Assembly (NCBI GenBank): GCA_029261715.1
Contig: JAJDAT010000032.1
Span: 10,575 to 74,574, forward strand
DNA: 64,000 nucleotides
Direction of reading: 5' to 3'
Source: Nitrospinia bacterium
Lineage (GTDB): Bacteria > Nitrospinota > Nitrospinia > Nitrospinales > JAJDAT01
A program made the translations under genes and the position numbers. Positions 27,322 through 53,100 of this stretch are shown piece by piece. The notes beneath the pieces were generated by a model that had not been told where the DNA came from, made no database searches, and saw only the letters and a list, made by a program, of their open reading frames with translations. Position 1 is the first letter of the stretch; every line of letters starts with the position of its first letter.

Positions 27322-27381
27322 CGAACCCCCTTTTTAAACACCAACAGCTTTTTTCAAGAAAAAAGCCGCCAAAATGATAAA

Positions 27382-27500: not shown

Positions 27501-27512
27501 AAGGGCTCCCTT
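27501..27512. repeat. Palindromic recombinase-type site, right (AAGGG-CT-CCCTT)
   Basis: Exact reverse complement of the 12-nt core at 27383-27394, with the central dinucleotide inverted (CT versus AG). About 20 nt upstream of ATG 27532. Confidence 0.5.
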
Positions 27513-27531
27513 GTCCGTAGGGGGTTTTCTC

Positions 27532-27909: not shown

Positions 27910-27912
27910 ATT

Positions 27913-28728: not shown

Positions 28729-28955
28729 ATTTTAAATTAAGACTCCACAAAAGGATAGTAATCCTATATGGTGCGTTGAAACTCTCCCCATCTATACCGA
28801 TATTTAATTATTACGAAAACAAATGCAAGGCTTACGTCTTACATTTCTTCACGCTTGTTTCCCGGAATGGAAACGCGCGGGTGATATATATAAGGAAAGT
28901 TTTTATCGCAATTCAAAACGTCCGTGATTATTCACGGCGAGAAAGAAACACGCCT

Positions 28956-29225
28956 ATGCGCTTAGACATTGAAAAATACCGCAAATATGTTGAGGGGTTT
29001 GACCTCACGGAAGAACAAAAAACAGAATTGATAAAATCTGTTTGGACCATCATGGAAAGTTTTGTAGACCGGGCCTTTGGTTTGCACCCGGCGCAACAAT
29101 GCCGGGAGTATTCCCAGCGCGATACTTTACACGCTCGCCGTAAAGCGCCAGAATCAAAGAAGTACCGCGCCCGTCATTCTTTTGAAATCAAAATCGTGCC
29201 TGACGATAAAGAACGGATTCATTAG
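28956..29225 (+). CDS. Small protein immediately upstream of the large serine recombinase (possible regulator/RDF)
   Basis: Track ORF is 28776-29225. ATG 28956 (MRLDIEKYRKYVEGFDLTEEQK...) is preferred. The palindrome CCGTGA-TTAT-TCACGG at 28922-28937 lies just upstream. Confidence 0.4.
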   Translation: MRLDIEKYRKYVEGFDLTEEQKTELIKSVWTIMESFVDRAFGLHPAQQCREYSQRDTLHARRKAPESKKYRARHSFEIKIVPDDKERIH

Positions 29226-29250
29226 CCAAAGCGGCAGGAAGGAAAAAACC

Positions 29251-36007: not shown

Positions 36008-38935
36008 TTAACATCCTGTCTCAGAACTCCCATTATCCAGAAAATCTCCCAAAACAGTCGATTGAATCGCATTCTCTTTATCTTCAATTCTATCTATAAT
36101 TTGCTCCACTGTATCATCGGGAAATTCACGAAAAAAATCTACGTTTGTATCTCCTGGACCACTCGGAATATCGAAGTCTTCTTCTAATTGATCAACTAAT
36201 ATTTCGAATAAAGCAGGCTCTAAAGTCTGAGCTAACGGACCAAATTGAGTCTCTGGCGTTACTCCCAATAGAATGACATCATTATTTATAAATATAAATG
36301 AATCCAATGCTGCGTCACTTGTAGAACCCAATAAAGGATCAAAAAATGGATCTCCTATAGAATCTAAAAACGGATCAAAAAACGGGTCAAAAAATGGATC
36401 ATCTGCAGCGTCACTTGTAGGTTCGGTGGCGCTTGTTGAATTCCCACCATTTGTATTAACTTGCCCAAAAGTATTTACAGTGTTGCCAACTAATGTCACA
36501 GCGCCGCCTCTTGTCGTGATGGAACTGTCTGTGCTCAATGTAAAATCCCCGCCATCAAATTGATCAAAGTCAGCCGTTGCGGTAAGAGTCTTACCAAAAC
36601 CCGAGATATGAGCTTCAATCCTTGTACCCGAAGTAAAACTAACATCGCCTAGAGCCTTAAAGCTAATATCCTCGTGAAATACAATCTTGGACGCGATACC
36701 TTCTATATTTTTACGAGAAATAAAATTAGTCTTCTTATGCCCTAAATCAATTTCTCCAAATGAAATAGTTCCCGAAAAAATATCGCCAATATTTAACGTA
36801 GTAGTTCTTAACGAATTTATCTCGTTTTGGCTTAAATCGATTGTACATCCCGTTGTTCCTACGCAAATCGTTTCGTCAACAACCGATGAAGCGATAGTAA
36901 TGCTATCGCTAGACCCAGATCCATTTATAAGCGAAAGTGGATTGGTAACTATGGAAGAAGGAAGTCCAAAAATATCTTCTCTATTGCCAGTAAGGCCGCT
37001 TTGAAATTCAAAACCAGAAGCAAATAAAGCCGCAGGCCCACCGCTGGTAGTGATTACAAAAGGGGCAAATTGAGTATAAGTTCCGCTACGATTGAGATCG
37101 AAATCGGCATTAGCAAAAAACGCCCCACCCCCTGTCATGATATTTCCTTTCACGTTTATTCCAGAGTGGGCATTTAAACTAACAGAACCTCCTGATGAAT
37201 TTATTGTACCGTGCGTACTAATAGAGGAACCGGCAACTAAATCAATATCGCCGCCATTAGACTCAATTTTTCCGACCGTCAATGTGAGTCCTGCTATGAG
37301 GTTAATAAAGCCACCCTGTGTCCGAATCATATCGTTGGTGTCATTAAAGGTAATGGGTCCACTGAATGTTTGAAATATAACTGAATTGTTTGAGGTTGTT
37401 TGTAAATCTAATACGTTGTCGCTTAAATCATTAATCGTAATTGATGTATTAGCTTCTAAAATAATATTATTAACTGCATTTAAATCTTCTAAGGCTTTCT
37501 CTGAAATAGTAAAAGTCCCAGATCCATCGGTAAAAAGGACCTCATGGTCCCCAGAAATTTCAGGATCAAAGTCGCTAGATAATTTATCCTCAATAACAAT
37601 ATCGTCAGGATCTAAAAGTAACGTACCAGTTTTGCCATTAGCCGCAGTAGTTACGACCTCGCCATTGAAATCCAAAAATTGTTTACCCGATACTTCCACA
37701 AAACCGCCGTCGCCTGAGTTGGTTCCACCTTTGGCTTCAATCGCTCCATAAAATCGAGTGGTGTCGTCGGCCCAGTAAATAACTCTACCACCGTTACCAT
37801 TGTTTATTGCGTTAGCTTTTACCGTGGTGTTAGAACCGCCAAAAGTCACCGCAGCATTTTGTACTGATCCTTTGCCTTGGTAATCGCCGCCAATTAAAAC
37901 TTCACCACCACCTTGATCACCGGAAACATCGACGATTGCTGTGCCTAATTGACCTACCTTATGACCTAAAATTCGAACGCTACCGCCGATCTCTCCAGAG
38001 CCGGTTCCTGAAGCGTCAAGCGTACCTTCGTTTGTCGCGGTTCCATTTGGTCCCGCTTCTAAATAGATGGCTCCATTTCTTTTAGAAACTGATTGCGCTC
38101 GAATAACCCCCGTATTATTAACCACCGAACGAACCATCTTTTGCGCGGTATGCGCGGTTAACAAAACTTTGCCACCATCGGCTTGGATTGTTCCTGAATT
38201 GAAGACTCCGTTGTCTACAGTCTTTCCGTCTTTATCCACAAACGAACCATCCACCGGTTCGGTGATTGCAAAGTTAATCAACCCGTCGCCGGAAAAATCC
38301 ATGGTTGCCGCTTTGCCCGAACCCAATGCAATCGAACCCAAATTTGCCATTAACATGCCGCGGTTTTCGGCGCGTGGTCCTAACAACCCGATATAACCAG
38401 AAGCGTTTATTTGACCTTCATTTATAACAGCGGCTAAAGGTTTTGATGGATCTTGCGTAAAGCGATAATTACGATTTAAAAAATCTTGATTGGAAATTTG
38501 CAACGACGTCGCCATCAAACTAGCTACATTGATTATTGAGTTCGGACCAAAAAACACTCCCGACGGATTGGTAATAAAAATTTGTCCGTTAGCGTTAAGC
38601 TTTCCTAAGATAGCTGTTGGGTCTTGCCCAATCACTCTATTCAGCGCAACTGAATTAGAATTTGGTTGATTGAACTGCACAGATTCGGATTGACCAATAT
38701 CAAACCCCTGCCAATTAGTAATCATCTGATTCGACGATTGGTTGATCACCATATTTTGGGCGTTTGGTTGTTGGATATTTCCGTTTCCCGCTACTATTTG
38801 GCCGTCTTGCGGCAACGCAAACAGTAGAGCGGGAAAATAACTCATCAAGAAAATCAAAAACCCGACCCAAAAAGGAACCAAATAATAGGGCAATAGTTTC
38901 ACCGGTTTAATATCGTTTTTTCTATTCACAGTCAA
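36008..38935 (-). CDS. TpsA-like exoprotein (TPS domain), 975 aa, tandem paralog
   Basis: The N-terminal roughly 445 aa are near-identical to the 945-aa paralog and the rest is collinear but diverged. Acidic DPFF repeats lie near the C-terminus. Confidence 0.9.
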   Translation of the reverse strand: MTVNRKNDIKPVKLLPYYLVPFWVGFLIFLMSYFPALLFALPQDGQIVAGNGNIQQPNAQNMVINQSSNQMITNWQGFDIGQSESVQFNQPNSNSVALNRVIGQDPTAILGKLNANGQIFITNPSGVFFGPNSIINVASLMATSLQISNQDFLNRNYRFTQDPSKPLAAVINEGQINASGYIGLLGPRAENRGMLMANLGSIALGSGKAATMDFSGDGLINFAITEPVDGSFVDKDGKTVDNGVFNSGTIQADGGKVLLTAHTAQKMVRSVVNNTGVIRAQSVSKRNGAIYLEAGPNGTATNEGTLDASGTGSGEIGGSVRILGHKVGQLGTAIVDVSGDQGGGEVLIGGDYQGKGSVQNAAVTFGGSNTTVKANAINNGNGGRVIYWADDTTRFYGAIEAKGGTNSGDGGFVEVSGKQFLDFNGEVVTTAANGKTGTLLLDPDDIVIEDKLSSDFDPEISGDHEVLFTDGSGTFTISEKALEDLNAVNNIILEANTSITINDLSDNVLDLQTTSNNSVIFQTFSGPITFNDTNDMIRTQGGFINLIAGLTLTVGKIESNGGDIDLVAGSSISTHGTINSSGGSVSLNAHSGINVKGNIMTGGGAFFANADFDLNRSGTYTQFAPFVITTSGGPAALFASGFEFQSGLTGNREDIFGLPSSIVTNPLSLINGSGSSDSITIASSVVDETICVGTTGCTIDLSQNEINSLRTTTLNIGDIFSGTISFGEIDLGHKKTNFISRKNIEGIASKIVFHEDISFKALGDVSFTSGTRIEAHISGFGKTLTATADFDQFDGGDFTLSTDSSITTRGGAVTLVGNTVNTFGQVNTNGGNSTSATEPTSDAADDPFFDPFFDPFLDSIGDPFFDPLLGSTSDAALDSFIFINNDVILLGVTPETQFGPLAQTLEPALFEILVDQLEEDFDIPSGPGDTNVDFFREFPDDTVEQIIDRIEDKENAIQSTVLGDFLDNGSSETGC

Positions 38936-38952: not shown

Positions 38953-40026
38953 TTAAGGAGTGCATCCTTGCGCTACTGCAGCAAAAGGAACATTAACAGG
39001 AGTATTAAACGCAACTGCTATATCTGGTCCTGCTGCGCTTACGAAATCGGATACGATAGAATCTCCTCCTCCCACATTGGAGTTTGATGCAGGTTGGGAA
39101 TCTTGTGAACTTGAAGTAGAGTCACCACTATCAGAAGAACTCGTGTCTCCAGAACTGGTACTCGAACTTGAATCAGAATCGGAACTACTGTCAGACTGTG
39201 AAGTCGATTGTTGAGTTGAGCCTGAGTCTTGTTTAAACATGGACGAAGGCAAACTGGTTCCAATCCGTCCCAGAACAACAGTACTGATGGAATTAAAATT
39301 ACTATTAGACATGGTCTGAGGAACTGATGGGGCTTGTCCCTGCGGAATTGTGCTCACGCTATTGGCTCCCACCAACTGGCTACCCGCAACATTAGGATCG
39401 ACATTGGAAGCGCTCATAGCTCCTGTTTTATTAGCCACAATCGTTTTTGTTGGAGAGGAGCTAATAAACCCAAAGGTACCTCTGGACGATAAGTTTGCAG
39501 TTGGCGTAACGACGCGAAAATTAGAATCTTTATTTTTTTGGCTTTTGTTAATGATGTACATAGAAAGACCACTAGCTACATTGATCAATCCTTGTCTTAG
39601 TTTTTTCCCCTTATTAACCTTGTAGGAACCAATTGACATTTTAGAATTTGGACCCAAAGCCAAAAGACTATTGTCTTTAAATTTTATTTTTAGCCGGCTC
39701 CCTCTTTTTGTGCGGAATCGGTCGGATGCATAAACTTCTTGTTTGAATTTGGCGCTTTTCCAGACAGCATTTGGATCGAATGAAACTGGTTTTATACTTA
39801 ATTTACCTGGAGTGGACTTGGCTACTGGTTCCGAACCTCCCGCCATCATTTCTACAGTTCCAATTATTCCAATAATCGTCCCAACCGGTTTTTCCTCAGC
39901 GGCCCAAGCAACAGATCCGAAATGTGAAGCTACAGACCCAAAATGTGAAATAACAAGCACAAAAATTGCCGACCAAAAAATACCGGGACCAGGGTTTGGA
40001 CGCGAAAAATTTATAGAGTCCGCCAT
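38953..40026 (-). CDS. Secreted FecR-domain protein (357 aa)
   Basis: Signal peptide, FecR-like core (DRFRTKRGSRLKIKFKDNSLLALGPNSKMSI...RGTFGF), and a Ser/Asp-rich tail ending AVAQGCTP. It is the first gene of the minus-strand operon, with a 17-nt gap to the tpsA gene. Confidence 0.75.
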   Translation of the reverse strand: MADSINFSRPNPGPGIFWSAIFVLVISHFGSVASHFGSVAWAAEEKPVGTIIGIIGTVEMMAGGSEPVAKSTPGKLSIKPVSFDPNAVWKSAKFKQEVYASDRFRTKRGSRLKIKFKDNSLLALGPNSKMSIGSYKVNKGKKLRQGLINVASGLSMYIINKSQKNKDSNFRVVTPTANLSSRGTFGFISSSPTKTIVANKTGAMSASNVDPNVAGSQLVGANSVSTIPQGQAPSVPQTMSNSNFNSISTVVLGRIGTSLPSSMFKQDSGSTQQSTSQSDSSSDSDSSSSTSSGDTSSSDSGDSTSSSQDSQPASNSNVGGGDSIVSDFVSAAGPDIAVAFNTPVNVPFAAVAQGCTP

Positions 40027-40175
40027 TTTTCTCCCTCTTTTAAAGAATAATGTCCAATATGAATATTTATTTAATTAAATTATTGTAAATTTAAACAAAA
40101 AAATCAAACTTATTATTTACGGATAAACCGCTTTTATAGTTTTATATTCATTAATGATACCATTTCCTCCAAAAA

Positions 40176-40193
40176 GTAAGGAGATGGGTCACA
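40176..40193 (-). promoter_or_regulatory. Conserved 18-nt motif TGTGACCCATCTCCTTAC (copy c)
   Basis: Third copy of the TGTGA-N6-TCCTT motif, about 150 nt upstream of the FecR-like gene start (40026) on the minus strand. Confidence 0.55.
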
Positions 40194-40392
40194 TTTCTAA
40201 AGATTTGTCTTAATAAATTTCAATTCCTAAGTGATTTTCAGGTTTATTTCTGCCCCGTGGAGAAGGGGATCTCAAAGAATTTTCGTCTAAGTCCCGCAAC
40301 TAAAATCAGAAATAAAGAAAGAGCTTGAAAAAGACCCGTTCTATATGCTAATTTCTCCCTCTTTATCCATATTTTATAATGGGTTTCAGGTT

Positions 40393-40407
40393 TGTGACAA
40401 TTTCACA
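40393..40407. promoter_or_regulatory. Palindrome TGTGA-CAATT-TCACA upstream of the KAS gene
   Basis: CRP/FNR-family-like half-sites with a 5-nt rather than 6-nt spacer, 45 nt upstream of ATG 40452. Confidence 0.35.
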
Positions 40408-40451
40408 CTTGTTTCCTAATGGGACGTTTGGCATTTTTACTTCGAAACTGA

Positions 40452-41702
40452 ATGGTTGACCAAAAAAACCCAGACTGGCGGATTGTCATCACGGGTGTTG
40501 GGCTGACCTCTCCCAATGGCAATAATCTAGCGGAATACCGAGAGAATCTGCTTCAAGGAAAATCGGGTATTGAAAAAATTGATATCCGATACATGGGAGA
40601 AGTTTTAGCCGGAGTTTGCAATTTTGACGAATTCAAATACCAGAAAAAGAAAGAACGAAGAAGAGGAACCCGGGCAGGTTCGGTTGGTATTTATTGCGCT
40701 CATGAAGCTATTACCGATTGCGGAATAGAATTAGACTCCTTCGATAAATCCAGAATAGGTATTTATTGTGGCGTTACGGAGCACGGCAACGTTGAAACGG
40801 AAAACGAAGTTTTCAACATAAGCCAATATGGTTACGACGTTAAATATTGGTCGCATCATCACAACCCGCGAACGGTAGCCAATAATCCTGCGGGAGAAAT
40901 TTCTCTCAATTTAAAAATTACCGGTCCACATTATTCAATTGGGGCGGCTTGTGCAGCCGGTAATTTAGGAGTGATTCAGGGATGCCAAATGTTGAGGCTA
41001 AAAGAAGTCGATATGGCTTTAGCCGGGGGTATTTCAGAAAGTATCCACACATTCGGTATTTTTGCTAGTTTTAAAAGCCAAGGGGCTTTGGCCTGGCACG
41101 AAGATCCAGAAAAAGCCAGCCGTCCTTTTGATTCAAGCCGAAATGGCATTGTTTGTTCCGAGGGTGGTTGTTTATATACATTAGAAAGATTATCAGACGC
41201 TCAAAAAAGAGGAGCCAAAATTTACGGGGAAATTGTTGGATACGGTGTTAACTCCGACGCTTTTGATTTTGTACTACCTCAACCCAAAGGCCAAACAGAC
41301 TGTTTAAATATGGCTTTGAATAATGCGGGTTTGAAAGCGGACGACATTGACATAGTAAATACCCATGCAACTTCAACCCCACAGGGCGACATCCAAGAAT
41401 GCATCGCAATTCGCAACGTTTTTGGTAATAGTAAAAATACTTGGATTAATAACACAAAAAGCTATATAGGACATGCAATGGGCGCTGCAGGAGCGCTAGA
41501 ATTAGCGGGAAATTTACCGGCATTTGACGATAAAATCGTCCATCCCACTATAAATATTGATCAGTTGGACCCAGAATGCGCTTTAGACAACTTGGTAATT
41601 AACCAACCGAAGCCGGTTGACCAGGTAAATTACATATTAAATAACTCATTTGGCATGCTTGGCATCAATTCCGCTTTGATCGTGAAACGGTTTGAAATAT
41701 AA
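40452..41702 (+). CDS. Beta-ketoacyl-ACP synthase (FabF/FabB-type KAS)
   Basis: 416 aa. Active-site Cys in YSIGAACAAG, and His motifs NTHATSTPQGD and SYIGHAMGAAG. Confidence 0.88.
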   Translation: MVDQKNPDWRIVITGVGLTSPNGNNLAEYRENLLQGKSGIEKIDIRYMGEVLAGVCNFDEFKYQKKKERRRGTRAGSVGIYCAHEAITDCGIELDSFDKSRIGIYCGVTEHGNVETENEVFNISQYGYDVKYWSHHHNPRTVANNPAGEISLNLKITGPHYSIGAACAAGNLGVIQGCQMLRLKEVDMALAGGISESIHTFGIFASFKSQGALAWHEDPEKASRPFDSSRNGIVCSEGGCLYTLERLSDAQKRGAKIYGEIVGYGVNSDAFDFVLPQPKGQTDCLNMALNNAGLKADDIDIVNTHATSTPQGDIQECIAIRNVFGNSKNTWINNTKSYIGHAMGAAGALELAGNLPAFDDKIVHPTINIDQLDPECALDNLVINQPKPVDQVNYILNNSFGMLGINSALIVKRFEI

Positions 41703-41752
41703 TAGGCGGTAGACTTAGGTAGGGAATCATAGAGGAGAGGAGTATTACTATA

Positions 41753-42016
41753 ATGACGAGAGACGACGTTAGAAATGCGGTTATTGGAATTTTGACCGAT
41801 ATTGCGCCGGACGAAGATTTTGATGCATTGAAGGACGAAGAGAAGTTGCGAGACCAGTTTGATTTAGATTCGATGGATTTTCTAGATATCGTTATGGAAT
41901 TGAGGAAGCGATACAACATCGAGGTTCCAGAAGCTGATTACGAACAACTCGTTACTATGACAAGCTGTATCGATTATTTGCAGCCTCTTTTAAAAAACCA
42001 GCAAATGGCTAGTTAA
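41753..42016 (+). CDS. Acyl carrier protein
   Basis: 87 aa. The phosphopantetheine attachment motif is FDLDSMDFLDIVMEL. Confidence 0.8.
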   Translation: MTRDDVRNAVIGILTDIAPDEDFDALKDEEKLRDQFDLDSMDFLDIVMELRKRYNIEVPEADYEQLVTMTSCIDYLQPLLKNQQMAS

Positions 42017-42141
42017 GCAAGGTTAAATACTCGGCTGTTCTTTCCCCCTATTAGAACAGCCTCGTCACAATAGACTCAATACCTAGCCAGTATAATTTTA
42101 CCCCTCCTCAAAGAATTATTACTGAAAGTTCATACCAAAAT

Positions 42142-43527
42142 ATGAAATACGACGCCATTATTCTAGGCGCCGGACTATCCGGCTTAGCTGCTGGAATTCG
42201 ACTTGCCTGCTTCGATAAGAAAGTATGCATCGTAGAAAAACATGTCGAAATTGGCGGATTAAACTCTTTCTACCAAATGAAAGACCGATGGTTTGACGTT
42301 GGACTTCACGCCATGACAAACTATTCACCGAAGGGAGTCCGCTCTTCTCCACTTGGAAAACTTTTAAAGCAACTTCGGTTCAAACATGAAGATTTTCAAC
42401 TATGCCAGCAAAAAGAATCAGAAATCAGCTTTCCTGGAGTTTCCCTAAGGTTTTCTAATGATTTTGAACTTTTTAGGCAAGAAATATCAGAAAAGTTTCC
42501 AAACCAAATCGATGGTTTTGACCAATTAACTCAAAGAATTCGCGACCATGACGATCTATCGCTTAAAAGCGGTTTCCTATCGTCTCGATCTGTTTTGGCG
42601 GAATACCTCACGGAGCCCAAACTTGCGGAAATGTTATTTTGTCCCCTGATGTTTTATGGCAATCCCCAAGCGGACGATATGGATTTCACTCAATTCACCA
42701 TCATGTTTAAAGCTATATTTCTTGAAGGCTTCGCTAAACCTTTGGGGGGAATGCGTCACATTCTTAAACTGATGGTGGACAAATATAAAAGCTATGGAGG
42801 CGAACTGAGGCTAGGACGAGCCGTAAAATCCCTTAATTTATCAAGCGAAGAAGTTAACTCCGTAACGTTGTCTAAGGGTGAAGAGCTACAAGCGGAAACT
42901 GTAATTTCGTCAATCGGATATGCAGAAACTATGCGACTTTGCGCGCCTGAAAAATTTCCCGAGGACTCTCTACAAGATGGGGAAATTTCTTTTGTAGAAT
43001 CTCAATATGTTTTAAACGTCCAACCTTCCGAAATTGGATACGACAAAAGTATCGTTTTTTTTAATACCAAGGACGAATTTAGTTATCGTAAACCCAAAGA
43101 AATGGTAGATTTAGCTTCAGGAATAGTTTGCTGCGCTAATAATTTCGATTACCCTAAAGAACAAGAAGGCCTCATTCGATTTACTTTTTTGGCTAATCCA
43201 GACCTTTGGTTTGGGCTTTCACGAACAGAATATAAGGAAGCAAAGTCTTATTGGCAGAAAAAAACTTTGGAAGCGGTAGTCGGTTTTTTGCCCGATTTTC
43301 GCGATTCTGTGGTATTTTTAGATACTTTCACCCCAAAAACTATTAAAAAATTTACCGGTCACGCAAACGGAGCCGTTTATGGATCGCCTGTTAAAATCCG
43401 TGATGGAAAAACTCCGGTAAAAAATCTATTTATTTGTGGCACCGATCAGGGTTTTTTAGGTATTATTGGAGCCACTTTAAGCGGCGTTACAGTTGCGAAT
43501 ATTTACGGGTTAAAAGCATCTTATTAA
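42142..43527 (+). CDS. FAD/NAD(P)-dependent oxidoreductase, phytoene-desaturase (CrtI)-like family
   Basis: 461 aa. N-terminal dinucleotide fold YDAIILGAGLSGLAAGIRLA...VEKHVEIGG, and a C-terminal FICGTDQGFLGIIGATLSG. Confidence 0.7.
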   Translation: MKYDAIILGAGLSGLAAGIRLACFDKKVCIVEKHVEIGGLNSFYQMKDRWFDVGLHAMTNYSPKGVRSSPLGKLLKQLRFKHEDFQLCQQKESEISFPGVSLRFSNDFELFRQEISEKFPNQIDGFDQLTQRIRDHDDLSLKSGFLSSRSVLAEYLTEPKLAEMLFCPLMFYGNPQADDMDFTQFTIMFKAIFLEGFAKPLGGMRHILKLMVDKYKSYGGELRLGRAVKSLNLSSEEVNSVTLSKGEELQAETVISSIGYAETMRLCAPEKFPEDSLQDGEISFVESQYVLNVQPSEIGYDKSIVFFNTKDEFSYRKPKEMVDLASGIVCCANNFDYPKEQEGLIRFTFLANPDLWFGLSRTEYKEAKSYWQKKTLEAVVGFLPDFRDSVVFLDTFTPKTIKKFTGHANGAVYGSPVKIRDGKTPVKNLFICGTDQGFLGIIGATLSGVTVANIYGLKASY

Positions 43528-43596
43528 AGAATACCTTTAGATAAGTCGAAATAATAAAATAAAATTAGCTTTTAAAAATTTACTGTTGGAAAAATT

Positions 43597-45039
43597 ATGG
43601 CAAGGAATTGGTTAAAAGGAGCACAAACTCGTTACGATAGCGTTGTAATAGGCAGTGGCCTGGCAGGGATGACGGCTGCAAATATGCTCGCTAAAGCCGG
43701 TCATTCGGTTTTACTGCTAGAGCAGCATTACAATTTTGGCGGACTAGCTACCTGGTTTAAACGCAAAGGTGGGCACATCCTAGATATTTCTCTTCACGGA
43801 TTTCCTATCGGGATGATAAAAACCTGCCGAAAATACTGGAGCAAAGAGATCGCCGATTCCATTGTTAGACTCCAAGGAGTTCGCTTCGACAATCCCCAAT
43901 TCACTTTTTCCACCACCTTTGACAAAATTGATTTTACTAATATCATGCGCGAAAGATTTGGCGTCTTGAAGGAAGTGATTGACGACTTTTTTGTGACAGC
44001 CCGAGAAATGAATTTCTACGATAATCTTTCCATGACCACCCGGGATTTATTCGAAAAGTTTTTCCCTGGAAGAACCGATATTCACCGGCTCTTAATGGAA
44101 CCAATCACTTATGCAAATGGTTCTACTTTGGACGATCCAGCCGTAACCTACGGCATTGTATTTTCTAACTTCATGGACAAAGGAGTTTATACCTTTAAAG
44201 GCGGCACTGACGCGCTGGTCAAAAAAATGAAAAAAGAAATGCTAAAAAATGGCGTGGATATCCGGAACCATTGCTTGGTCGATAAAATTTTAGTAGAAGA
44301 TAAAAAAACCCGAGGAGTTCGCGTCAATGGTCGCGAAATTGAATCAGATGTTGTGCTCTCGAACTCTAGCTTACCGGCTACAATTCACAAATTAACCGGC
44401 GATGAACATTTTTCTCCAGAATTTTTAGAAGAAGCGAGAAAAGTGAGAATGAATAACAGCAGTTGCCAGGTTTATATGGGAATAAAAAAAGGCGAAAAGA
44501 TCGATTACACTGGGGACTTGTTGTTTACCTCCGTAACCGACGAGTTTAGCGCAAAAAAGTTATGCGATAAAAATGTTACCAGCAGAACATTTTCATTTTA
44601 TTATCCAGAAATCAGGCCAGGTACTAACCAATACTCAATAGTTTCTTCTACAAACGCTAATTTTGAAGACTGGGCGAATCTAACTGAAGAAGAATACCTC
44701 AAAGAAAAAGATAAGTTGATCGAATCCACCTTAACTGCGCTTGAAAAGTACGTTCCCGATATTCGCAGTAAAGTCGACCATGTGGAAGCCTCAACTCCGA
44801 AAACGTTTAAGCGTTACACTATGCATACACGCGGTTCTTCGTTCGGCACTAAATTTGAGGGACTGAAAATTAGCAAAGAATTGCCCGAACAAATTGCGGG
44901 CTTATTTCATACGGGATCGGTCGGCATCATAATGTCGGGTTGGCTCGGAGCCGCCAACTACGGAGTTATCGTTTCAAATGAAGTGGATCGCTTTCTTAGA
45001 AAAGTAAAATCCGAAAGATTAGAAACGGTAAGCGTCTAA
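43597..45039 (+). CDS. FAD/NAD(P)-dependent oxidoreductase, phytoene-desaturase (CrtI)-like family (second copy)
   Basis: 480 aa. [20 protein letters not shown]...LEQHYNFGG, and a C-terminal [21 protein letters not shown]. Confidence 0.7.
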
Positions 45040-45098
45040 TACTTCAGCGAAAGATCTTGTTTTGAGCAGAACTTTTTTCCTTCCTTTTAGTTATCCTT

Positions 45099-45842
45099 AT
45101 GCAATTTGATTTTTCCGACCAAACCGCTATCGTCACTGGAGGAACCCGAGGCATTGGTAGAAGCGTTTCAGAAGCTTTTTTAAAAGCGGGCGCTAAAGTC
45201 GTGGCAACTTATAAAAGCAACCACGATGCCGCCGAATCTTTTTGCAAAGACAACTCTCAATACAATTCCCAAATACAACTTGCACAGTTTGACGTATCCG
45301 ATAGCGAAGGAGTCGAAGGATTCTACAAACTTGTAGAAGAACGATATGGACCATTCCAAATTTTGGTTAATAATTCGGGAATTCGCAAAGATTCCGTTGT
45401 GGGAATGATGAAGGAAGAAGATTGGCGAGACGTTATTGACGCAAATTTGACCGGAACTTTTTTAATGAGCAAATTGGCGGTTCATCATCTCATGCGCCAA
45501 AGGTATGGCCGAATCATAACCATCACCTCCCCTATTGGCCGGATGGGTTTTGCCGGGCAATCTAATTACGCCGCTTCCAAAGCTGCGCAAGTCGCTTTCA
45601 CTCAATCGTTAGCAAAAGAAGTCGCCAGCCGCGGAATCACCGCTAATTGTATTTCGCCGGGTTTTATCGAAACGGATTTCATATCCGATCTATCCGACAA
45701 ACAGCGGGATGGCTATAAAGCTTTAGTTCCACTCAAACGATTTGGCAAACCTGAAGAAGTCGCCAATGCGGTATTGTTTCTCGCCTCCAAAGAAACCGCT
45801 TATATTACGGGAACCACCCTAGAAATTTCCGGCGGACTTTAA
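45099..45842 (+). CDS. fabG: 3-oxoacyl-ACP reductase (SDR family, FabG-like)
   Basis: 247 aa. TGGTRGIGRS, NNSGI and the YAASKAA (YxxxK) motif. Confidence 0.85.
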   Translation: MQFDFSDQTAIVTGGTRGIGRSVSEAFLKAGAKVVATYKSNHDAAESFCKDNSQYNSQIQLAQFDVSDSEGVEGFYKLVEERYGPFQILVNNSGIRKDSVVGMMKEEDWRDVIDANLTGTFLMSKLAVHHLMRQRYGRIITITSPIGRMGFAGQSNYAASKAAQVAFTQSLAKEVASRGITANCISPGFIETDFISDLSDKQRDGYKALVPLKRFGKPEEVANAVLFLASKETAYITGTTLEISGGL

Positions 45843-45850
45843 AAAACCAA

Positions 45851-46609
45851 TCAAATAATCAACGAAAGACAGGTTACGCCGCCATCGGCTTTTTCAAATT
45901 CACTCATTGGAATTTGAATAACTTGAAAACCGCATTCGCGTATCTTAGCAGCTAGCTTTGGGTATCCTTGTGGAGCAATCACATAACTACCCACTACCAA
46001 ACAATTAGCGGAATAACTTTCCTTCGTGGATACCTCAATAATTTGAAATTTTTTAAACGCTGTTGCCTCTATTTTGGAACAGTCCAAAATAATTCTTCCG
46101 TCTCCCAGATAAGTCGCCGCGCTTTTCAAATGAAGCCCATCCAAAACAGGGACAACAGTAATTGGTTTTTTGGTAAAGGTCTTTAAAAACTCAACGCCTT
46201 CCAAATTCGTGCGCGTAGATTCTCCAATAAAAATTTCATCTTCCGTTTGCAACACGTCTCCGCCATCCAGTGTCGCCGGAGGCAACATGTAAATAATGGA
46301 AGTGTAGCGTTCAAGCTCGGAAACAATAGATTCGCCTTCACCGCGACGAGTTTCAGCCTTCATAGAACAAAGAACCGCTTTATCTTCTAACATGACAACG
46401 GGATCTTCGACAAAAGGAGCGTCTGGAAAATTTTCCTGGGGATCTAGGTGGATTACCGAAAGACCGGCGCGCGTCAAAGCGTTTGCGTACTGACGGTGTT
46501 GATTAAGGGCTTTGCCAAAATCAATAGAATCGCTCTGGGGATGATTAGAAATAGCGTCTGCAAAACCGGGGGTGGGTTCGCGCACTAAAGCCATCGAACG
46601 ATTCATCAA
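45851..46609 (-). CDS. Dimethylarginine dimethylaminohydrolase (DDAH)/amidinotransferase-fold protein
   Basis: 252 aa. DDAH-like N-terminus (ALVREPTPGFADAIS...QHRQYANAL) and a C-terminal catalytic-Cys region ADGGVTCLSLI. Confidence 0.7.
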   Translation of the reverse strand: MMNRSMALVREPTPGFADAISNHPQSDSIDFGKALNQHRQYANALTRAGLSVIHLDPQENFPDAPFVEDPVVMLEDKAVLCSMKAETRRGEGESIVSELERYTSIIYMLPPATLDGGDVLQTEDEIFIGESTRTNLEGVEFLKTFTKKPITVVPVLDGLHLKSAATYLGDGRIILDCSKIEATAFKKFQIIEVSTKESYSANCLVVGSYVIAPQGYPKLAAKIRECGFQVIQIPMSEFEKADGGVTCLSLII

Positions 46610-46635
46610 TAACCCCCATTCCGTTTTACAAAAAC

Positions 46636-47109
46636 CTAATCAATGGTGGGAGTATTCATAAGCCGGGAGAAATTCAACATTTGAAAATGTTTCTTGGCGC
46701 CGCGATATTTTTTCATCATCGCTTTGGATGGTTTAAGACCTTCTTCGACTTTGTTCTTCTGAGCGATATAAATATAACCCTTTGTTTCAGAAAAGTCGTG
46801 GCGCGTTAGAGACATGATTTTTCTATCGTATTCATCCGGATATTGATAATGACGATCAAGCCCTGCAAGCTTTTCTTCTTCCATTTCATAAATCATCCCG
46901 ATCATCATTCCCAAATTATCGTGTGTGGGCTCAATATTAGCGTGACCCAGCCCTTCAATTCCTTCATTATCCACCGGGACTTTATTAAAAACGCGCTTCC
47001 AGGCAGAAAGAGTAACTGAATACTTGGTTGTAAAAGAAAATCCCAGCTCTTTATAAACCTTTTCGTTGATCAACTCATCATAAATAAATACACGGACAAT
47101 ATTTGACAT
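46636..47109 (-). CDS. Gamma-glutamylcyclotransferase-like (AIG2/GGCT fold) protein
   Basis: 157 aa. The N-terminal VFIYDELINEKVYKELG resembles the GGCT YGTL-type start. This is a weak assignment. Confidence 0.4.
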   Translation of the reverse strand: MSNIVRVFIYDELINEKVYKELGFSFTTKYSVTLSAWKRVFNKVPVDNEGIEGLGHANIEPTHDNLGMMIGMIYEMEEEKLAGLDRHYQYPDEYDRKIMSLTRHDFSETKGYIYIAQKNKVEEGLKPSKAMMKKYRGAKKHFQMLNFSRLMNTPTID

Positions 47110-47285
47110 TCTAGTCTCTATAGAAAGTAATTTAAAAATACAAAAAATTACGAGGTTATTTTAATCTGTGTTAGGATGCTATATTAGCAAAATAACGCGA
47201 TCAAAGCTGTTTATATTTGCGTTTATAAAGGATTTATACATCCTTTTTTCAATAAAGTTAAAGTTACCTGGAAAGGAGTGAACTC

Positions 47286-47612
47286 ATGGCCGGCAATGTA
47301 GTTGAAATCTCCGACGCCGAATTTGAATCGTCAATTATTCAAAGTGATAAGCCCGCTTTAGTGGATTTCTGGGCAGAATGGTGTCAACCCTGTAAAATGC
47401 TTGCCCCTACTGTGGAAGAAATCGCAGGCGAGTACATCGATAAAGTCAAAGTCGCCAAAGTTAATGTAGACGACAACCCAGCAATCGCTACCAAGTTTGG
47501 TATTCGCGGTATCCCTACTCTTTTGCTTTTTAAAGAAGGAAAAGTAGTTCAGCAAATGGTAGGCGTTAAGCCTAAGAGTGATATCACAAAAGCTATCGAA
47601 GAAGTTCTATGA
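47286..47612 (+). CDS. trxA: Thioredoxin
   Basis: 108 aa. LVDFWAEWCQPCKMLAP...GIRGIPTLLLFKEG. The active site reads CQPC rather than CGPC. Confidence 0.88.
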   Translation: MAGNVVEISDAEFESSIIQSDKPALVDFWAEWCQPCKMLAPTVEEIAGEYIDKVKVAKVNVDDNPAIATKFGIRGIPTLLLFKEGKVVQQMVGVKPKSDITKAIEEVL

Positions 47613-47623
47613 AATTGGTTTCC

Positions 47624-47653
47624 CCGGCTTAATGGCCAGTAGCCTTAAGCCGG
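47624..47653 (+). terminator. Candidate terminator hairpin after trxA
   Basis: CCGGCTTAA-N11-TTAAGCCGG, a 9-bp stem, followed by a weak T-tract. Confidence 0.4.
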
Positions 47654-47726
47654 TTGATTCAATTCGTTAGTCTTCAATAATCTGACCACTCTGGTCCTCA
47701 AAGGCCTTCATCCTCTGGAGCTTGCG

Positions 47727-48431
47727 ATGTCGAAAAAACTGGAATGCCTCAAAAACGTTTCTATTTTTTCGGGAATGAACGACACCCACCTTGAAGAAAT
47801 CGCCTCGATCACCATAGAGAATAAGTTCAAAAAAAATAAAGTCATTTTTAGTAAAGGCGACCGAGGAAACGTTTTATTCATTCTCACCTCAGGTACCGTA
47901 AAATTATCTCTTTTTGACCAATCCGGTAAAGAAATGATTTTAAAAATGCTTTATAAAAACGACTTCTTTGGTGAAATGTCGTTACTAGACGAATTCTTTC
48001 GTTCCGCAACCGTTACTGCCGTTGAAGATTCACAAGCTCTTCTTATTTATAGAAACGAATTTATGCGATTAATTCACCAATTTCCAGGAATCGCTTTGGA
48101 AATGTTGAAAGTCTTCATACACCGTTTAAAAACGAGCGACAAAAAAATCGTTAGTCTTACTTTTTTCGACGCGTTCCGAAAAGTAAGTTCTACTGTCATC
48201 GATTTAGCGGAGAAAACCGGACGTCAGGAAGGAAAATACACCGCTATCGACTTAACGTTAACCCGCCAGGACCTAGCCAATATGATCGGCATGAGCCGAG
48301 AAACGTTAACTCGCATTTTGCAAGAATTACACTTTCGAGAAATTTTAAACGTTAGTAGAAAAAAAATAATCATTCTCGATCAAAAAGCTCTGGAAAATGA
48401 AATTGAAAACGCGCGAGTCCCAAAACTTTAG
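47727..48431 (+). CDS. Crp/Fnr-family transcriptional regulator
   Basis: 234 aa. cNMP-binding domain (FGEMSLLDEFFRSATVTA) and C-terminal HTH (RQDLANMIGMSRETLTRIL). No N-terminal Cys cluster. Confidence 0.8.
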   Translation: MSKKLECLKNVSIFSGMNDTHLEEIASITIENKFKKNKVIFSKGDRGNVLFILTSGTVKLSLFDQSGKEMILKMLYKNDFFGEMSLLDEFFRSATVTAVEDSQALLIYRNEFMRLIHQFPGIALEMLKVFIHRLKTSDKKIVSLTFFDAFRKVSSTVIDLAEKTGRQEGKYTAIDLTLTRQDLANMIGMSRETLTRILQELHFREILNVSRKKIIILDQKALENEIENARVPKL

Positions 48432-48496
48432 CGCTTTTTTAAAATACCGTCTAACCTGCCCTTTTTGAACAAATTCCATCCTTCAGTTTTAAAAAA

Positions 48497-48514
48497 TGTG
48501 ATCTACTTCCTTTT
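48497..48514 (+). promoter_or_regulatory. Conserved 18-nt motif TGTGATCTACTTCCTTTT (copy a)
   Basis: Lies 64 nt upstream of the FecR-like ATG 48578. A TATATT -10-like hexamer at 48535-48540 places the motif centre near -42. Confidence 0.55.
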
Positions 48515-48577
48515 CTTATATAGCCATCTTGTCGTATATTAAAATAAGAGAACAAAAAAAATCATTCATAAGGCGAT

Positions 48578-49675
48578 ATGTTTTCAAATATTTCCCGGAC
48601 CTTAAATTCAAATAAATATAAAAAGTGGACTTTGCTTTCCTTTTGGATGTTAGTTCTTTCGCTCAGTTGGCTAGTTGAAGCAAAGGCGGAAGAAGAACCC
48701 GTGGGAACAATCATTGGCGTGTCTGGGGAAATTTTATACAGAACTGCGGGTGACGATCCCGTCGCAAGTAAGGATAAACCTGGCGAGACTAAACTTGCTT
48801 CTTTTACGCCCTGGGAGAAAGTTAAGTTTAAACAACCTGTCTACGCTAAAGACGAATTCAAAACCTCAAAACGCAGTCGGCTCAAAATAAAATTTAACGA
48901 CAATAGCCTCATGGCGCTAGGCCCAAACTCAAAAATGCAAGTGGGCTCATATGTTTTCAGTAAAAAAAAGAAGCTGCGTCAGGGAGTGATGAAGATTTCG
49001 TATGGGTTATCTATGTACATCGTCAACAAAACCCAACGTAATAAAAATTCCAGTTTTAGAATCGTTTCGCCTACCGCAAATTTAGCGGCGCGCGGTACCC
49101 AGGGATATGTAAGTTCTTCCGATAAGATTACTTACCTGGCAAACCAAGCCGGAGCAATGGACTCCTCCAGCAGCGATCCAAATATCAAAGGGAATCAACT
49201 GGTCGGCGCGATGAAAAAAAATTCAATTCCGGCAGGACAACCGCCAACCCCCCCGACAAACTTGACAAATAACGACCTAAGCGCCGTTAGAAACGTTGTG
49301 ATGGGACCGATAGGTATTAATCCTAACAACCCAATAATTAAAGATTTAACTCAAACTGCCCCGGTTCAAAAGAAAAAAGCTGCAAAATCCAAAACAAGCG
49401 ATAAAAGCGGAGGTACAAAAGGCGACTCCAGCGAAGAAGGCGATAGCGAGAGTTCAGAATCTAGCGAAGGTGGGGATAGCGGTGATTCCGGTGGCGATAG
49501 CGCAGATTCTGGAGGCGACTCTGGAGGCGGAGATAGCGGCGGCGGAGATGGCGGAGGCTTTGCCGACAGTTTTACATCCACCGGTAGTTCCGGAGGCGGT
49601 GGTAGTGGCGGTGGCGACTTTGCTCCTGTTAACAATCCTTTTTCACCGGCTGCTCTAAGTTCCTGTTCCGGCTAA
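48578..49675 (+). CDS. Secreted FecR-domain protein (365 aa)
   Basis: Paralog of 38953-40026, with the same core (KRSRLKIKFNDNSLMALGPNSKMQV...RGTQGY). Gly/Ser/Asp-rich tail ending ALSSCSG. Confidence 0.75.
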   Translation: MFSNISRTLNSNKYKKWTLLSFWMLVLSLSWLVEAKAEEEPVGTIIGVSGEILYRTAGDDPVASKDKPGETKLASFTPWEKVKFKQPVYAKDEFKTSKRSRLKIKFNDNSLMALGPNSKMQVGSYVFSKKKKLRQGVMKISYGLSMYIVNKTQRNKNSSFRIVSPTANLAARGTQGYVSSSDKITYLANQAGAMDSSSSDPNIKGNQLVGAMKKNSIPAGQPPTPPTNLTNNDLSAVRNVVMGPIGINPNNPIIKDLTQTAPVQKKKAAKSKTSDKSGGTKGDSSEEGDSESSESSEGGDSGDSGGDSADSGGDSGGGDSGGGDGGGFADSFTSTGSSGGGGSGGGDFAPVNNPFSPAALSSCSG

Positions 49676-50013
49676 TGGGCTCTAAAATGCTACACATGTT
49701 AAAAAAACTCACATTACTTATCGTTTTTTCGGCCCTTTTTGCGCTAAATTTTGCTTCCGCTCAAACAAAGATTCCTCCTGCCGCCGAATCGGGCCTTGCG
49801 CTCAAAATGCTTAAAAAATCGCAACCCGGCCGTTGGGACCCTCCCCCACAGGCTATACCAGAAGATCTGATCGTTCGGGAAGATGAAATTCCTGCAAAAC
49901 CCCCTACCTCGTCCGAAATTAATAAAACTATCGAGCTAGAAGTAACCTCTCCAGACAAAAACCCTACCAAAATCTCACCCGTAGAAATATTAAGAGATAA
50001 TATTCCTCACTGA
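49675..50013 (+). CDS. Small secreted Pro-rich protein
   Basis: 112 aa. TAATG overlap with the preceding stop. Signal peptide LTLLIVFSALFALNFASA. Confidence 0.5.
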   Translation: MGSKMLHMLKKLTLLIVFSALFALNFASAQTKIPPAAESGLALKMLKKSQPGRWDPPPQAIPEDLIVREDEIPAKPPTSSEINKTIELEVTSPDKNPTKISPVEILRDNIPH

Positions 50014-50175: not shown

Positions 50176-53100
50176 TTGCAACGCCAACCCAACAATTTAT
50201 CCGTAAGCCGTGTTTTGAAAAACCGTTTTAATAAAATTTTAGCGGTTTTCCTTATTTATATGATCGGCGGATTTCCGACGTTAGTGTTTGCCCTACCGCA
50301 AGACGGGCAAATTGTTTCGGGACAAGGAACCATTGGTCTGCCTTCTTCAAACCAAATGGTTATCAACCAAAATACTAACCAGTTGATAACCAACTGGAAC
50401 AGTTTCAATATAGGTCAATCCGAACACGTTCAGTTTAACCAACCCAATGCAAATTCGACGGCTCTCAATCGAGTTATGGGACAAGACCCCAGCTCTATCA
50501 TGGGTAGGCTGTCAGCTAACGGTCAGGTCTTTTTATCCAATTCGTCTGGAATCATTTTTGGGCAAAACTCTAGGGTGAATGTTGGCGGCTTGATGGCCAC
50601 AACCTTAGGGATATCTAACGAAGATTTCCTCAATCGCAATTATCACTTCACACAAGACGAATCGAAACCGCTCGCGGCCATCCTCAATCAAGGAATTATC
50701 GAAGCAGGTCAAGTGGGACTGCTCGCTCCTAGAGTCGAAAACCAAGGAAAAATAATCGCCAGCTTAGGCAATGTCGCTCTGTCTTCCGGAGAAGCGGCTA
50801 TTCTCGATTTTGACGGCAGCGGATTGATCAATTTCGAAATCACCGAACCGGTTAACGGCGAAGTAAAAGACACGGATGGCAACGTTGTCGAAAGCGGCGT
50901 GATCAACTCAGGATTTGTTAAAGCGCATAACGGTAACGTAATCCTATCGGCGCATCAAGCGCGCGGTATGGTAAGAAGCGTTGTCAATAATACGGGAATC
51001 ATTGAAGCAAATAACGTCGTCAAAAAAGGCGGTCGGGTTTTTCTAATAGGCGACCGCGTTAAAAACTCCGGAAGCATAAACGTTACCGGAACGGAATCCG
51101 GACAAACCGGCGGTACCGTTCATATATTAGGAAACGAAGTCAATATTTCTGGCGGAACCATTGACGCATCCGGCGAGGCTGGCGGCGGAACGATTTTAAT
51201 TGGCGGCGACAAACAAGGTCAAAATCCAAATATACAAAACGCAACTAACACGACTGTTAGCGAGTCTGCGGTCATTAAAGCTGACGCCATCAATAATGGC
51301 GATGGCGGTAAAGTCATCATTTGGGCAGAAAACTCAACCAAAGTTTACGCGGTAATCTCCGCACGCGGCGGCGCCAACGGCGGCGATGGCGGATTTGTAG
51401 AGACTTCCGGTAAAAAGTTTCTAGACGTCACCAAAGCGGCAGACGTTTCCTCTCCTAAAGGAAAAGCCGGAACCTGGTTACTCGATCCGACCAATATAGA
51501 AATCGTCAGCGGTCCCGGTAACGGCGACGGCTCGCAAGTATCCGTAACGACTATCGAGACAGCGCTCAACGCAGGCACCAGCGTTCACATCGTTACCAGC
51601 GGCCAAGGATTGGAAGAAGGAAGCATCACCGTTTCGACAGCCATCTTGAAATCGTCTGGCGGTAACACGTCATTAACTATGACAGCGCATGGCGATATCA
51701 TCGTCAATCAATCGATCACTTCCACAAACGGAACATTAGACGTCAACCTCATCGCGGGATCAAATGTTCTCATCAACGCAGCTATTGCCACAAACGGCGG
51801 TAACTTATTAGCCGATGCAGGAGCGACCAATCTCCCGGCAAATATCTCGGGATCTTACACACCAGCGGCGCGTATTAGTGGAGCGGCAGTTGAATTACCT
51901 AAAATTGAAGTTAAGGCCGATATCACTACAGGGGGGGGCGACGTAACCCTTGGACAGTTTAAAACAAAAAGTCATTCTTTAATCGGCGGCGGAACTTATA
52001 CAAAAGAAAACGTGGCGAAAGCCGATATCCTTATTGAAAACGCATCCATCAGCACTGGTGGTGGAGATTTCAAAACCAACGGCGCTACCGTTAATTTAAA
52101 TCAAACGGTTATCAATACAGACGTGGGAAATATTAACCTGGATTCCAACATCGGTACTCCAACGTTAACATTATCTGCGAATCCTGATTTTAATCCGATT
52201 TTACTTTCAATTCCATCCATTAATATTGGTTCGAATTCTTCTCTCACCTCTCTTGGCGGGGACATTACCCTCTCCTCCAATGCAGCGGAACTCATAATTG
52301 TCGAAGAGCCTGTTTTAACCATTAATATTGAAGGCAATGCCTCCATCACAACAGAAGGCGGAAATATTCTTATTGACGGCGGCGATAACTCTATTGTCCT
52401 TGTAGCTGGAAACTTGAGCGTAGCCAATCCAAATGGAGTGGGCGGAACCATTCAAGTTCTAGGAACCTACGTAGGGATTACGGGTGATGCTGAACTCGAC
52501 GCTTCCGGCGACGAAGGCGGTGGAATCATTTTGGTTGGTGGCGATTATCAAGGCAAAAACGAAGACGTTCGCAACGCAGATAGAGCCTTCATAGCAAGTA
52601 ACGCTTCCCTGAAAGCCGACGCTTTAAGAATCGGAAACGGCGGTAAGGTCATTTTATGGGCCAACGACGTGGCGCGTTTCTATGGTTCCATTTCAGCAAA
52701 GGGCGGCGCCACTTCCGGCGACGGAGGATTTGTCGAAACATCCGGTAAAAACACCTTAGAGTTTCGTGGTGACGTAGATATCACGGCGGCGAACGGAGAT
52801 TTAGGAACCCTGGTTTTAGACCCACAAGACATCACCATCGCCGACGGATCTGGCGGCGCGGACGACACGCAAGTATCGGGCGATTCCACAGCCCTATTTG
52901 CGGATGGGGGAGCGGTTACTTTCACTATCTCAGAGCAAACTTTGGAAGGGTTAACCGGAAACATCATCCTGCAAGCAACCCAAGACATTATCATCAACGA
53001 CCTGACAACCGATGGCGTTTTAAATTTATCCAATCTGACGTCGGGCGAGTCCTTTGTCTTACAAGCCGGACGGCATATAACATTTAATAACACGGCCAAC

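Follow-up and report, generated by a model that had tools for sequence, protein, structure and literature searches.

The subject of this analysis is a 64,000-nt stretch of contig JAJDAT010000032.1 from a Nitrospinia bacterium, in which two divergent gene groups combine a two-partner secretion (TPS) system with FecR-domain proteins. The whole stretch is referred to here as the window, and coordinates are window positions. Operon A lies on the minus strand and runs from the gene for FecR-like 1 (357 aa, 40026..38953) through that for TpsA1 (975 aa, 38935..36008) to that for its paralogue TpsA2 (945 aa, 35980..33143). On the plus strand, operon B starts with a gene for a Crp regulator (47727..48431) and continues with FecR-like 2 (365 aa, 48578..49675), a 112-aa open reading frame (ORF; 49675..50013) and TpsA3 (3785 aa, TTG start, 50176..61533). 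The sole TpsB transporter gene within the window (62574..64000, plus strand) runs off the window end; it was found by tblastn against the TpsBs of related loci, and the part scanned (62574-63998) encodes a POTRA_2 domain (3e-12) and a ShlB barrel (4e-21).

Both FecR-like proteins are matched by the Pfam model FecR (PF04773) above its cut-off of 24 bits, FecR-like 1 with 40.5 bits (E=4e-10) and FecR-like 2 with 39.1 bits (E=1e-9). The models for Leptospira LipL45/Lsa33 (NF033165 and NF047849) gave 21-30 bits against cut-offs of 350 and 420, and only the shared FecR domain is matched. In FecR-like 1, a signal peptide (about residues 1-44) is followed by a beta-sandwich (45-252, nt 39271-39894), a Ser/Asp-rich linker (255-320, nt 39067-39264) and a tail (321-357) that carries the sequence TPVNVPF and Cys355. 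The AlphaFold2 model has a predicted local distance difference test score (pLDDT) above 90 for residues 45-252 and below 50 for residues 255-320, which predicts that the linker is disordered. In a Foldseek search the beta-sandwich matched the C-terminal cell-surface-signalling domain of PupR (6ovk_R, E=1.7e-7) and, as a second match, BDI_1681 (4m0h), a Bacteroidales anti-sigma factor (E about 2e-7). FecR-like 2 is composed of a signal peptide, a FecR domain, a linker that is first Lys-rich and then rich in Gly, Ser and Asp, and the tail GDFAPVNNPFSPAALSSCSG. The N-termini of the FecR-like proteins resemble signal peptides, with AxA-type sites that immediately precede a conserved EEKPVG motif; reading cleavage from these sites, the proteins are likely to be exported by Sec and to reside in the periplasm.

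The original prediction for this locus, made from the DNA letters and their translations, drew attention to acidic low-complexity linkers and to a single cysteine near the end of each FecR-like protein. The linker strings that it quoted are present. Residues 255-320 of FecR-like 1 include 29 Ser, 8 Asp, 6 Gly and 6 Thr and have a net charge of -7, and residues 262-345 of FecR-like 2 include 27 Gly, 21 Ser and 11 Asp and have a net charge of -9. Translation and a count of cysteines also bear out one cysteine per protein, at residue 355 of FecR-like 1 (codon TGC, 38962..38964, minus strand) and residue 363 of FecR-like 2 (codon TGT, 49664-49666, plus strand), third from the end in both. The two proteins end in ...NTPVNVPFAAVAQGCTP and ...FAPVNNPFSPAALSSCSG, that is, in CTP and CSG, respectively.

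The three TpsA proteins begin with a TPS secretion domain: PF05860 matches TpsA1 (E=3e-32) and TpsA2 (E=3e-33), and TIGR01901 matches all three (E=1e-21 to 7e-24). TpsA3 has DUF5649 repeats as well. With an N-terminal TPS domain and a cognate-type TpsB (ShlB/POTRA), the genes encode a two-partner, or type Vb, secretion system. Every TpsA of the two operons ends in cysteine (3/3), as had been noticed from the sequence: Cys975 of TpsA1 (codon 36011-36013), Cys945 of TpsA2 (codon 33146-33148) and the last residue of TpsA3 (codon 61528-61530), whose tail reads ...QSTFVTSFGDNGGAGGGGC and whose terminal cysteine is the only one among 3785 residues. TpsA1 and TpsA2 each have one internal Cys loop, C691-x5-C697 and C704-x5-C710, respectively. 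AlphaFold2 models TpsA1 as a beta-helix to about residue 840, followed by a low-confidence helix/coil tail of about 130 residues that ends in the cysteine. Just before the conserved C-terminal tail of TpsA3 lies a low-complexity run of Thr and Glu, TTETTTTTETTTETTTTETTTTTTTETTTTTT (about 61380-61470), which may be a spacer or a glycosylation-type stretch.

Conservation and co-occurrence of the terminal cysteines

Is the cysteine of the FecR-like tail conserved? In an alignment of 26 homologues, with identity down to 39%, the cysteine column (C355 of FecR-like 1) is the sole invariant position beyond residue 253, and it is preceded by the motif (D/E)F-x-x-V-N-x-P-F. Of the 58 family members with a length of 250 aa or more, 51 have a tail cysteine, and in 46 of these 51 it is the only cysteine after residue 45. 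The expectation that the cysteine near the C-terminus would be kept in homologues thus holds for its presence and not for its exact place: it is mostly third from the end, and elsewhere second to sixth and once tenth, so that one to nine residues follow it. A HMMER scan of 1.8 billion representative proteins set the proteins with the Cys tail clearly apart as a subfamily, with about 40 clusters at 50% identity, below which there is a sharp fall to generic FecR-domain proteins without the tail. In the genome collection scanned, the Cys-tailed FecR-like/TpsA system is found only on Nitrospinota or Nitrospinota-like contigs, and the related genomic loci come almost without exception from Nitrospinota metagenome-assembled genomes (MAGs), which places the window in this phylum too.

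The family members without a tail cysteine, among those that could be examined, are truncations. Two apparent exceptions, P0162 and P0029, are truncated or chimeric. P0029 (303 aa, on a JGI contig) joins about 95 residues of a FecR domain to the last 200 or so of a TpsA and ends in ...DFLDSGGINKPNC; it stems from a deletion or from faulty assembly and is uninformative. P0163 was considered as a Cys-less exception, or as a case of selenocysteine in place of cysteine, and rejected, as the DNA reads TGC GCT CCC TGA and the protein ends in ...GESCAP. Among distant FecR-domain proteins without the cysteine (P0189-P0288), many end in a Pro/Thr-rich linker and a terminal strand of the type TTPVNVNIVF or TPVxVxIxF(P). 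For two distant Cys-less proteins, P0236 and P0253, the surroundings of the gene were also inspected, but their contigs are too short to tell anything. Judging from sequence, the Nitrospinota tail TPVNVPF...C may derive from such a TTPVNVNIVF-type motif, and this would suggest a C-terminal docking strand that is common to the whole family.

On the side of the exoproteins, 65 of the 120 best TpsA homologues terminate exactly in cysteine, with 57 distinct tail sequences, and those with other ends are mostly fragments or belong to other classes. Where a C-terminal cysteine is present, it is always the very last residue. The number of cysteines, signal peptide excluded, is odd in 64 of the 65 homologues that end in one. 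When there are three, the two internal cysteines are always 4-8 residues apart and form a local loop, and such pairs lie within the beta-helix, about 200-280 residues upstream of the terminal cysteine. Because the count is odd and the internal cysteines are paired, the terminal cysteine has no partner in its own chain. The TpsA proteins of two loci, L013 and L019, were rejected as exceptions, since their genes are frameshifted and the ends ...KDGC* and ...EAGC* are encoded just downstream in another frame. These frameshifts, near the 3' ends of the genes (about 14400-14520 in L013 and 11300-12700 in L019), may be assembly errors or real pseudogenisation.

The recurring gene order in related loci is (p221) - TpsB - FecR-like with Cys tail - TpsA with terminal Cys, joined in some of the loci by a CHASE2 adenylate cyclase and a Crp regulator; in most of these loci, TpsB lies directly upstream of the FecR-like gene. 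Counting gene clusters as they stand, 18 have both a TpsA with a terminal cysteine and a gene for a Cys-tailed FecR-like protein, six have neither, and none is discordant. When three further TpsA proteins with a terminal cysteine were picked from the list of homologues, a Cys-tailed FecR-like gene was found immediately upstream in 3/3. Conversely, six related complete TpsA proteins without a terminal cysteine are all encoded in plain TpsB-TpsA pairs with no FecR gene. Two of these six carry a Cys-x5/6-Cys pair in cis near the C-terminus, P0148 (L038) with ...PPCTPTGACAP... and P0054 (L041) with ...DDCPEGDDSC..., ...DDCPEGDDSCRSQ, an arrangement that resembles the one known from HMW1-type anchors. 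In a neighbour-joining tree, which has no support values, the FecR-associated TpsBs cluster together and five of the six plain TpsBs lie outside, while the TpsB of P0054 groups with the FecR-associated ones. The observed pattern of cysteines is far from chance.

Could another protein of the module supply the second thiol? TpsB was rejected as a disulfide partner, as it has 0-4 non-conserved cysteines and none at all in several loci. The CHASE2 protein has conserved cysteines only in its cytoplasmic cyclase domain and none in the periplasmic domain, and p221 has no cysteine in seven of nine loci. Since none of the three has a conserved extracytoplasmic cysteine, the other proteins of the module are excluded as thiol partners. 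p221 is a conserved secreted protein of about 215-235 aa without a Pfam match that ends in ...LSYIEKPxxPDVFRIKEGDF. Its gene is directly upstream of TpsB in many FecR-like modules (L004, L012, L016, L017, L019, L020 (7168-7833), L022, L023 and L030) and is absent from the window.

A proposed tail-to-tail disulfide and its alternatives

The original prediction suggested that the cysteines of the two proteins are paired thiols, for example in a disulfide that tethers the C-terminus of TpsA to the FecR-like protein. A functional pairing of the tails is supported by their conservation, by the odd cysteine parity (64/65), by the co-variation of the two features (18/6/0), by the lack of another source of cysteine and by the precedent of TPS anchors; the covalent bond is what we infer. 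The comparative pattern is clean, and the family appears to be restricted to one phylum. The best reading is a tail-to-tail disulfide between TpsA and the FecR-like protein, a trans or "split" version of the HMW1/HxuA/CdrA anchor, and to this bond, proposed from sequence, we would give about an even chance. A disulfide is the simplest chemistry because the unpaired cysteines at the chain ends are co-conserved and co-vary, and because there are relatives with a cis pair that lack FecR.

How might such a system work? It would be a three-part type Vb system, consisting of the TpsB transporter, a beta-helical TpsA exoprotein with an unpaired terminal cysteine and a periplasmic FecR-domain protein, whose long, disordered and acidic linker would end in a short docking motif, (D/E)F-x-x-V-N-x-P-F, and then one cysteine. 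TpsA proteins cross the inner membrane by Sec, and it is their C-terminus that leaves the periplasm last (PMC5422565). Given this route, and the signal-peptide-like N-termini of the FecR-like proteins, both thiols should meet in the periplasm, where the terminal cysteine of TpsA and the tail cysteine of the FecR-like protein would form the disulfide. As both cysteines are at chain ends, the linked product would be an almost linear chain. Such a chain would be compatible with the narrow TpsB channel, in which the C-terminus of TpsA and possibly part of the linker would lie. The folded FecR beta-sandwich of about 200 residues could not pass the TpsB pore and would act as a periplasmic stopper, and TpsA would thereby stay tethered to the cell. 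It may be speculated that the acidic linker of 60-150 residues serves as a leash.

Several observations weigh against this scheme. The comparison of 18 with six clusters ignores kinship, and the counts are not phylogenetically independent. In two lineages (L020; L043/L044), no TpsA is encoded within 6-10 kb of the CHASE2-p221-TpsB-FecR-like(Cys) modules, which means either that the partner is encoded elsewhere or that the cysteine has a role independent of TpsA, for example in a FecR-like homodimer. A partner encoded elsewhere is possible in view of P0080, a partial TpsA labelled as coming from a Nitrospinae CG11 MAG that may be the MAG carrying the L016 module. In operon A, a single FecR-like gene is accompanied by two TpsA genes, and the operon lacks a TpsB gene of its own. 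The FecR-like region before the tail is weakly similar to the tail of the cognate TpsA (permutation p=0.006), a result for which two Gly-rich pairs are responsible, and the higher scores of cognate than of non-cognate pairs are suggestive only. It is also possible that the FecR-like proteins keep an uncleaved N-terminal anchor.

Some of these points would suit other explanations. Homodimers (TpsA-S-S-TpsA and FecR-like-S-S-FecR-like) would suit the two terminal-Cys TpsA paralogues per FecR-like protein in operon A, as would a transient mixed disulfide with the FecR-like protein as a pilot or chaperone that holds the C-terminus of TpsA until its release. A FecR-like homodimer could also explain why the cysteine is kept in modules that lack TpsA. 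However, pure homodimerisation leaves it unexplained that a terminal-Cys TpsA never occurs without a gene for a Cys-tailed FecR-like protein and that a TpsA lacking the terminal cysteine never occurs with one, and we regard this group of explanations as doubtful. Alternatively, the cysteines might act as free thiols or ligands, with the tails jointly coordinating a metal (Cu, Zn or Fe), or sensing redox or nitrosative conditions in the periplasm of a nitrite oxidiser and feeding into CHASE2 and cyclic AMP (cAMP). The position of a single conserved cysteine in flexible tails, the sensory genes that accompany the module (CHASE2 cyclase, Crp, kinases that bind cyclic nucleotide monophosphates (cNMPs)) and the retention of the FecR-like cysteine in modules without an adjacent TpsA are in keeping with such a role. 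Yet there is no other conserved His, Cys or Met near either cysteine, the tails being rich in Gly, Ser and Asp, and pairing accounts no less well for the strictly terminal cysteine of TpsA and for its co-variation with the FecR-like protein. In aerobes, moreover, thiols left unpaired in the periplasm are usually oxidised. We regard free thiols or ligands as quite unlikely.

The least likely alternative, and a very improbable one, is that the cysteine is an attachment site for a lipid, peptidoglycan, a polysaccharide or a cofactor, which some enzyme would add, in analogy to C-terminal sorting or lipidation signals such as CaaX. The strictly terminal cysteine of TpsA does resemble a processing signal, and in L032 a gene of the PEMT/ICMT family lies 1 kb upstream of the FecR-like/terminal-Cys TpsA pair. 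Against this, the loci share no conserved enzyme gene, and L032 alone has the ICMT-like one. Moreover, the FecR-like cysteine is followed by one to nine residues, unlike CaaX, there is no transmembrane or sorting-domain segment after the cysteine, and no NCBIfam sorting-signal model matches the tails. A CaaX-type prenylation signal, with the cysteine at position -4, was rejected for the same reasons: the cysteine is last in TpsA and variable in position in the FecR-like proteins, and the ICMT-like gene is confined to one locus.

The tail-to-tail disulfide might be connected to signalling. About half of the loci contain CHASE2 cyclases, Crp regulators or cNMP-binding kinases, and clusters of FecR-domain, CHASE2, tetratricopeptide repeat (TPR) and Crp proteins are known from other phyla (PMC5498481, PMC9239204, PMC13001267); a signalling role for the FecR-like domain is therefore plausible by analogy. 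The CHASE2 and Crp genes in many loci, and the Crp gene directly upstream of FecR-like 2, suggest that the FecR-like domain may pass the state of the tether on to cAMP signalling. At its most elaborate, the TpsA filament would be a surface antenna, leashed across the outer membrane to a periplasmic FecR-domain transducer by the covalent tail-to-tail disulfide, and the acidic linker would run through the TpsB pore or come close to it. When the filament is lost, bound or put under tension, or when the disulfide is reduced, the FecR domain would signal this to the CHASE2 cyclase and Crp. We consider this antenna unlikely; if true, type Vb secretion would here be the basis of a form of cell-surface signalling that has not been described before.

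How TpsA proteins are retained at the cell surface is known for only a few pathogens, and in these both cysteines of a periplasmic disulfide "knot" belong to the same protein. If the proposed disulfide is real, the secreted protein would contribute one cysteine of this knot and a dedicated third partner the other, and a FecR-domain component would be added to type Vb secretion. It would also provide a function for a widespread class of orphan FecR-domain proteins beside CHASE2 sensors, and suggest a physical route from events at a surface filament to cAMP signalling. The hosts are marine nitrite oxidisers, whose cell-surface biology is almost unexplored.

Neighbouring genes

The first gene of operon B (47727..48431, plus strand) encodes a Crp-family cNMP-binding transcription factor with the Pfam domains cNMP_binding and HTH_Crp_2, and a Crp gene is found in the same position in the related loci L001, L003, L005, L006 and L016. 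CHASE2 cyclases are encoded in L005, L016, L019, L020, L033 and L044, and there is no CHASE2 gene in the window. The PEMT/ICMT-family (isoprenylcysteine carboxyl methyltransferase-like) gene of L032 is at 2661-3371; this is the only locus with such a gene, and its placement is probably coincidental.

The 112-aa ORF (49675..50013, plus strand) overlaps the stop codon of FecR-like 2 (ATGA) and contains no cysteine. It resembles the N-terminus of TpsB, with a signal peptide and an AQ..IPPA.E.G.A.K.L..SQ segment (tblastn 3e-6 against the TpsB of L008); it carries AQTKIPPAAESGLALKMLKKSQP, for which the counterpart in the window TpsB is AQITIPPAGEAGIAEKSLRQSQ. The ORF is kept after the orthologous FecR-like gene in L006 (2514-2840, phmmer 1.5e-33), and it may be what is left of a TpsB gene, or else a free peptide similar to a plug helix. 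Between TpsA3 and TpsB lies a GIY-YIG domain gene (61669-61974, minus strand), and another is found upstream of a TpsB in L039.

A gene on the plus strand (31175..33115) that converges on the end of operon A encodes a TPR-repeat protein of 646 aa, which matches Pfam TPR families and has syntenic counterparts in L001 and L003. FecR/CHASE2 clusters elsewhere also come with TPR proteins (PMC9239204, PMC5498481), and the protein is a possible associate of the system. Just upstream of the TPR/TpsA operon, 16606-30864 resembles a mobile-element region, with genes for an IstB-like ATPase (16606-17460), a NikA-like protein (20341-20793), a MobA/VirD2 relaxase (20714-21913), a small resolvase (26761-27321, minus strand) and a large serine recombinase (29077-30864).

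The space between the operons (40452-47109) is occupied by genes that look unrelated to the secretion system, for a beta-ketoacyl synthase (KAS), two FAD amine-oxidase-like proteins, an SDR protein, a DDAH/amidinotransferase-like protein and a GGACT-like protein. Syntenic blocks are present in L001 and L003, and the genes may form a small cluster for a lipid or a secondary metabolite. Next comes an ordinary-looking thioredoxin gene (47286-47612; CxxC at residues 33/36) that has no part in the evidence for pairing. Near the start of the window, gidB (rsmG), parA and parB (3919-6442) and two bactofilin genes (6679-7074 and 9322-9882) form an arrangement typical of origin-proximal chromosomal regions.

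Comparison with known systems

Full-text literature searches found no description of a terminal-Cys TpsA, of a FecR-domain third partner in TPS or of the Cys tail, and NCBIfam has no model for the FecR-like or the TpsA tail. Which known systems, then, come closest?

The cAMP-related clusters have signalling genes in common with many of the related loci. In the CyaD1-CyaK-Clr-SMc02177 cluster of S. meliloti (PMC5498481, PMC13001267) and in clusters of Campylobacterota (PMC9239204), the gene for a periplasmic FecR-domain protein is accompanied by those for a CHASE2 cyclase, a TPR protein and a Crp-family regulator. In contrast to the Nitrospinota modules, no TpsA or terminal cysteine has been reported there, and the window is without a CHASE2 gene.

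The FecR and PupR anti-sigma regulators (PDB 6ovk) have the same periplasmic beta-sandwich fold, and both of them use this domain to bind an outer-membrane beta-barrel protein at the part that lies in the periplasm. The FecR-like proteins differ in having no cytoplasmic anti-sigma domain, only a signal-peptide-like N-terminus before the FecR domain. Neither an extracytoplasmic function (ECF) sigma factor gene (fecI) nor a gene for a TonB-dependent transducer (fecA) is nearby, the neighbours being TpsA, TpsB, Crp and TPR genes. The protein here would be a secreted or anchored periplasmic one, with a disordered linker and a Cys tail.

Closest in mechanism are the anchored exoproteins. In HMW1 and HxuA of Haemophilus influenzae, a C-terminal disulfide anchor locks TpsA in the TpsB pore (Buscher et al. 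2006, reviewed in PMC5422565). The proposed system is likewise of type Vb, with a cysteine at the extreme C-terminus that is proposed to hold this end on the periplasmic side of the TpsB pore. In HMW1 and HxuA, however, two cysteines of one tail form an intramolecular loop, whereas the Nitrospinota TpsA has one terminal cysteine and the second would come from the FecR-domain protein; the window TpsAs, with one cysteine in the tail, thus have no intramolecular loop of the HMW1/HxuA/CdrA type. CdrA of Pseudomonas aeruginosa anchors to CdrB by a cysteine hook (Cooley et al. 2016, as cited in bioRxiv 10.64898/2026.07.13.738186). It too is a fibrillar TpsA that is retained in the TpsB pore by C-terminal cysteines and has a tie to a second messenger, cyclic di-GMP (c-di-GMP) and LapG there and possibly cAMP and Crp here. 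CdrA is released by LapG proteolysis under the control of c-di-GMP, whereas no LapG, LapD or TAAG-type site was seen here, though no search was aimed at them. In contrast to the hook of CdrA, the one proposed here would be intermolecular. The C-terminal disulfide anchor of TpsA is thus a known class of mechanism, while a form split between two proteins, with a FecR domain as the stopper, would be new.

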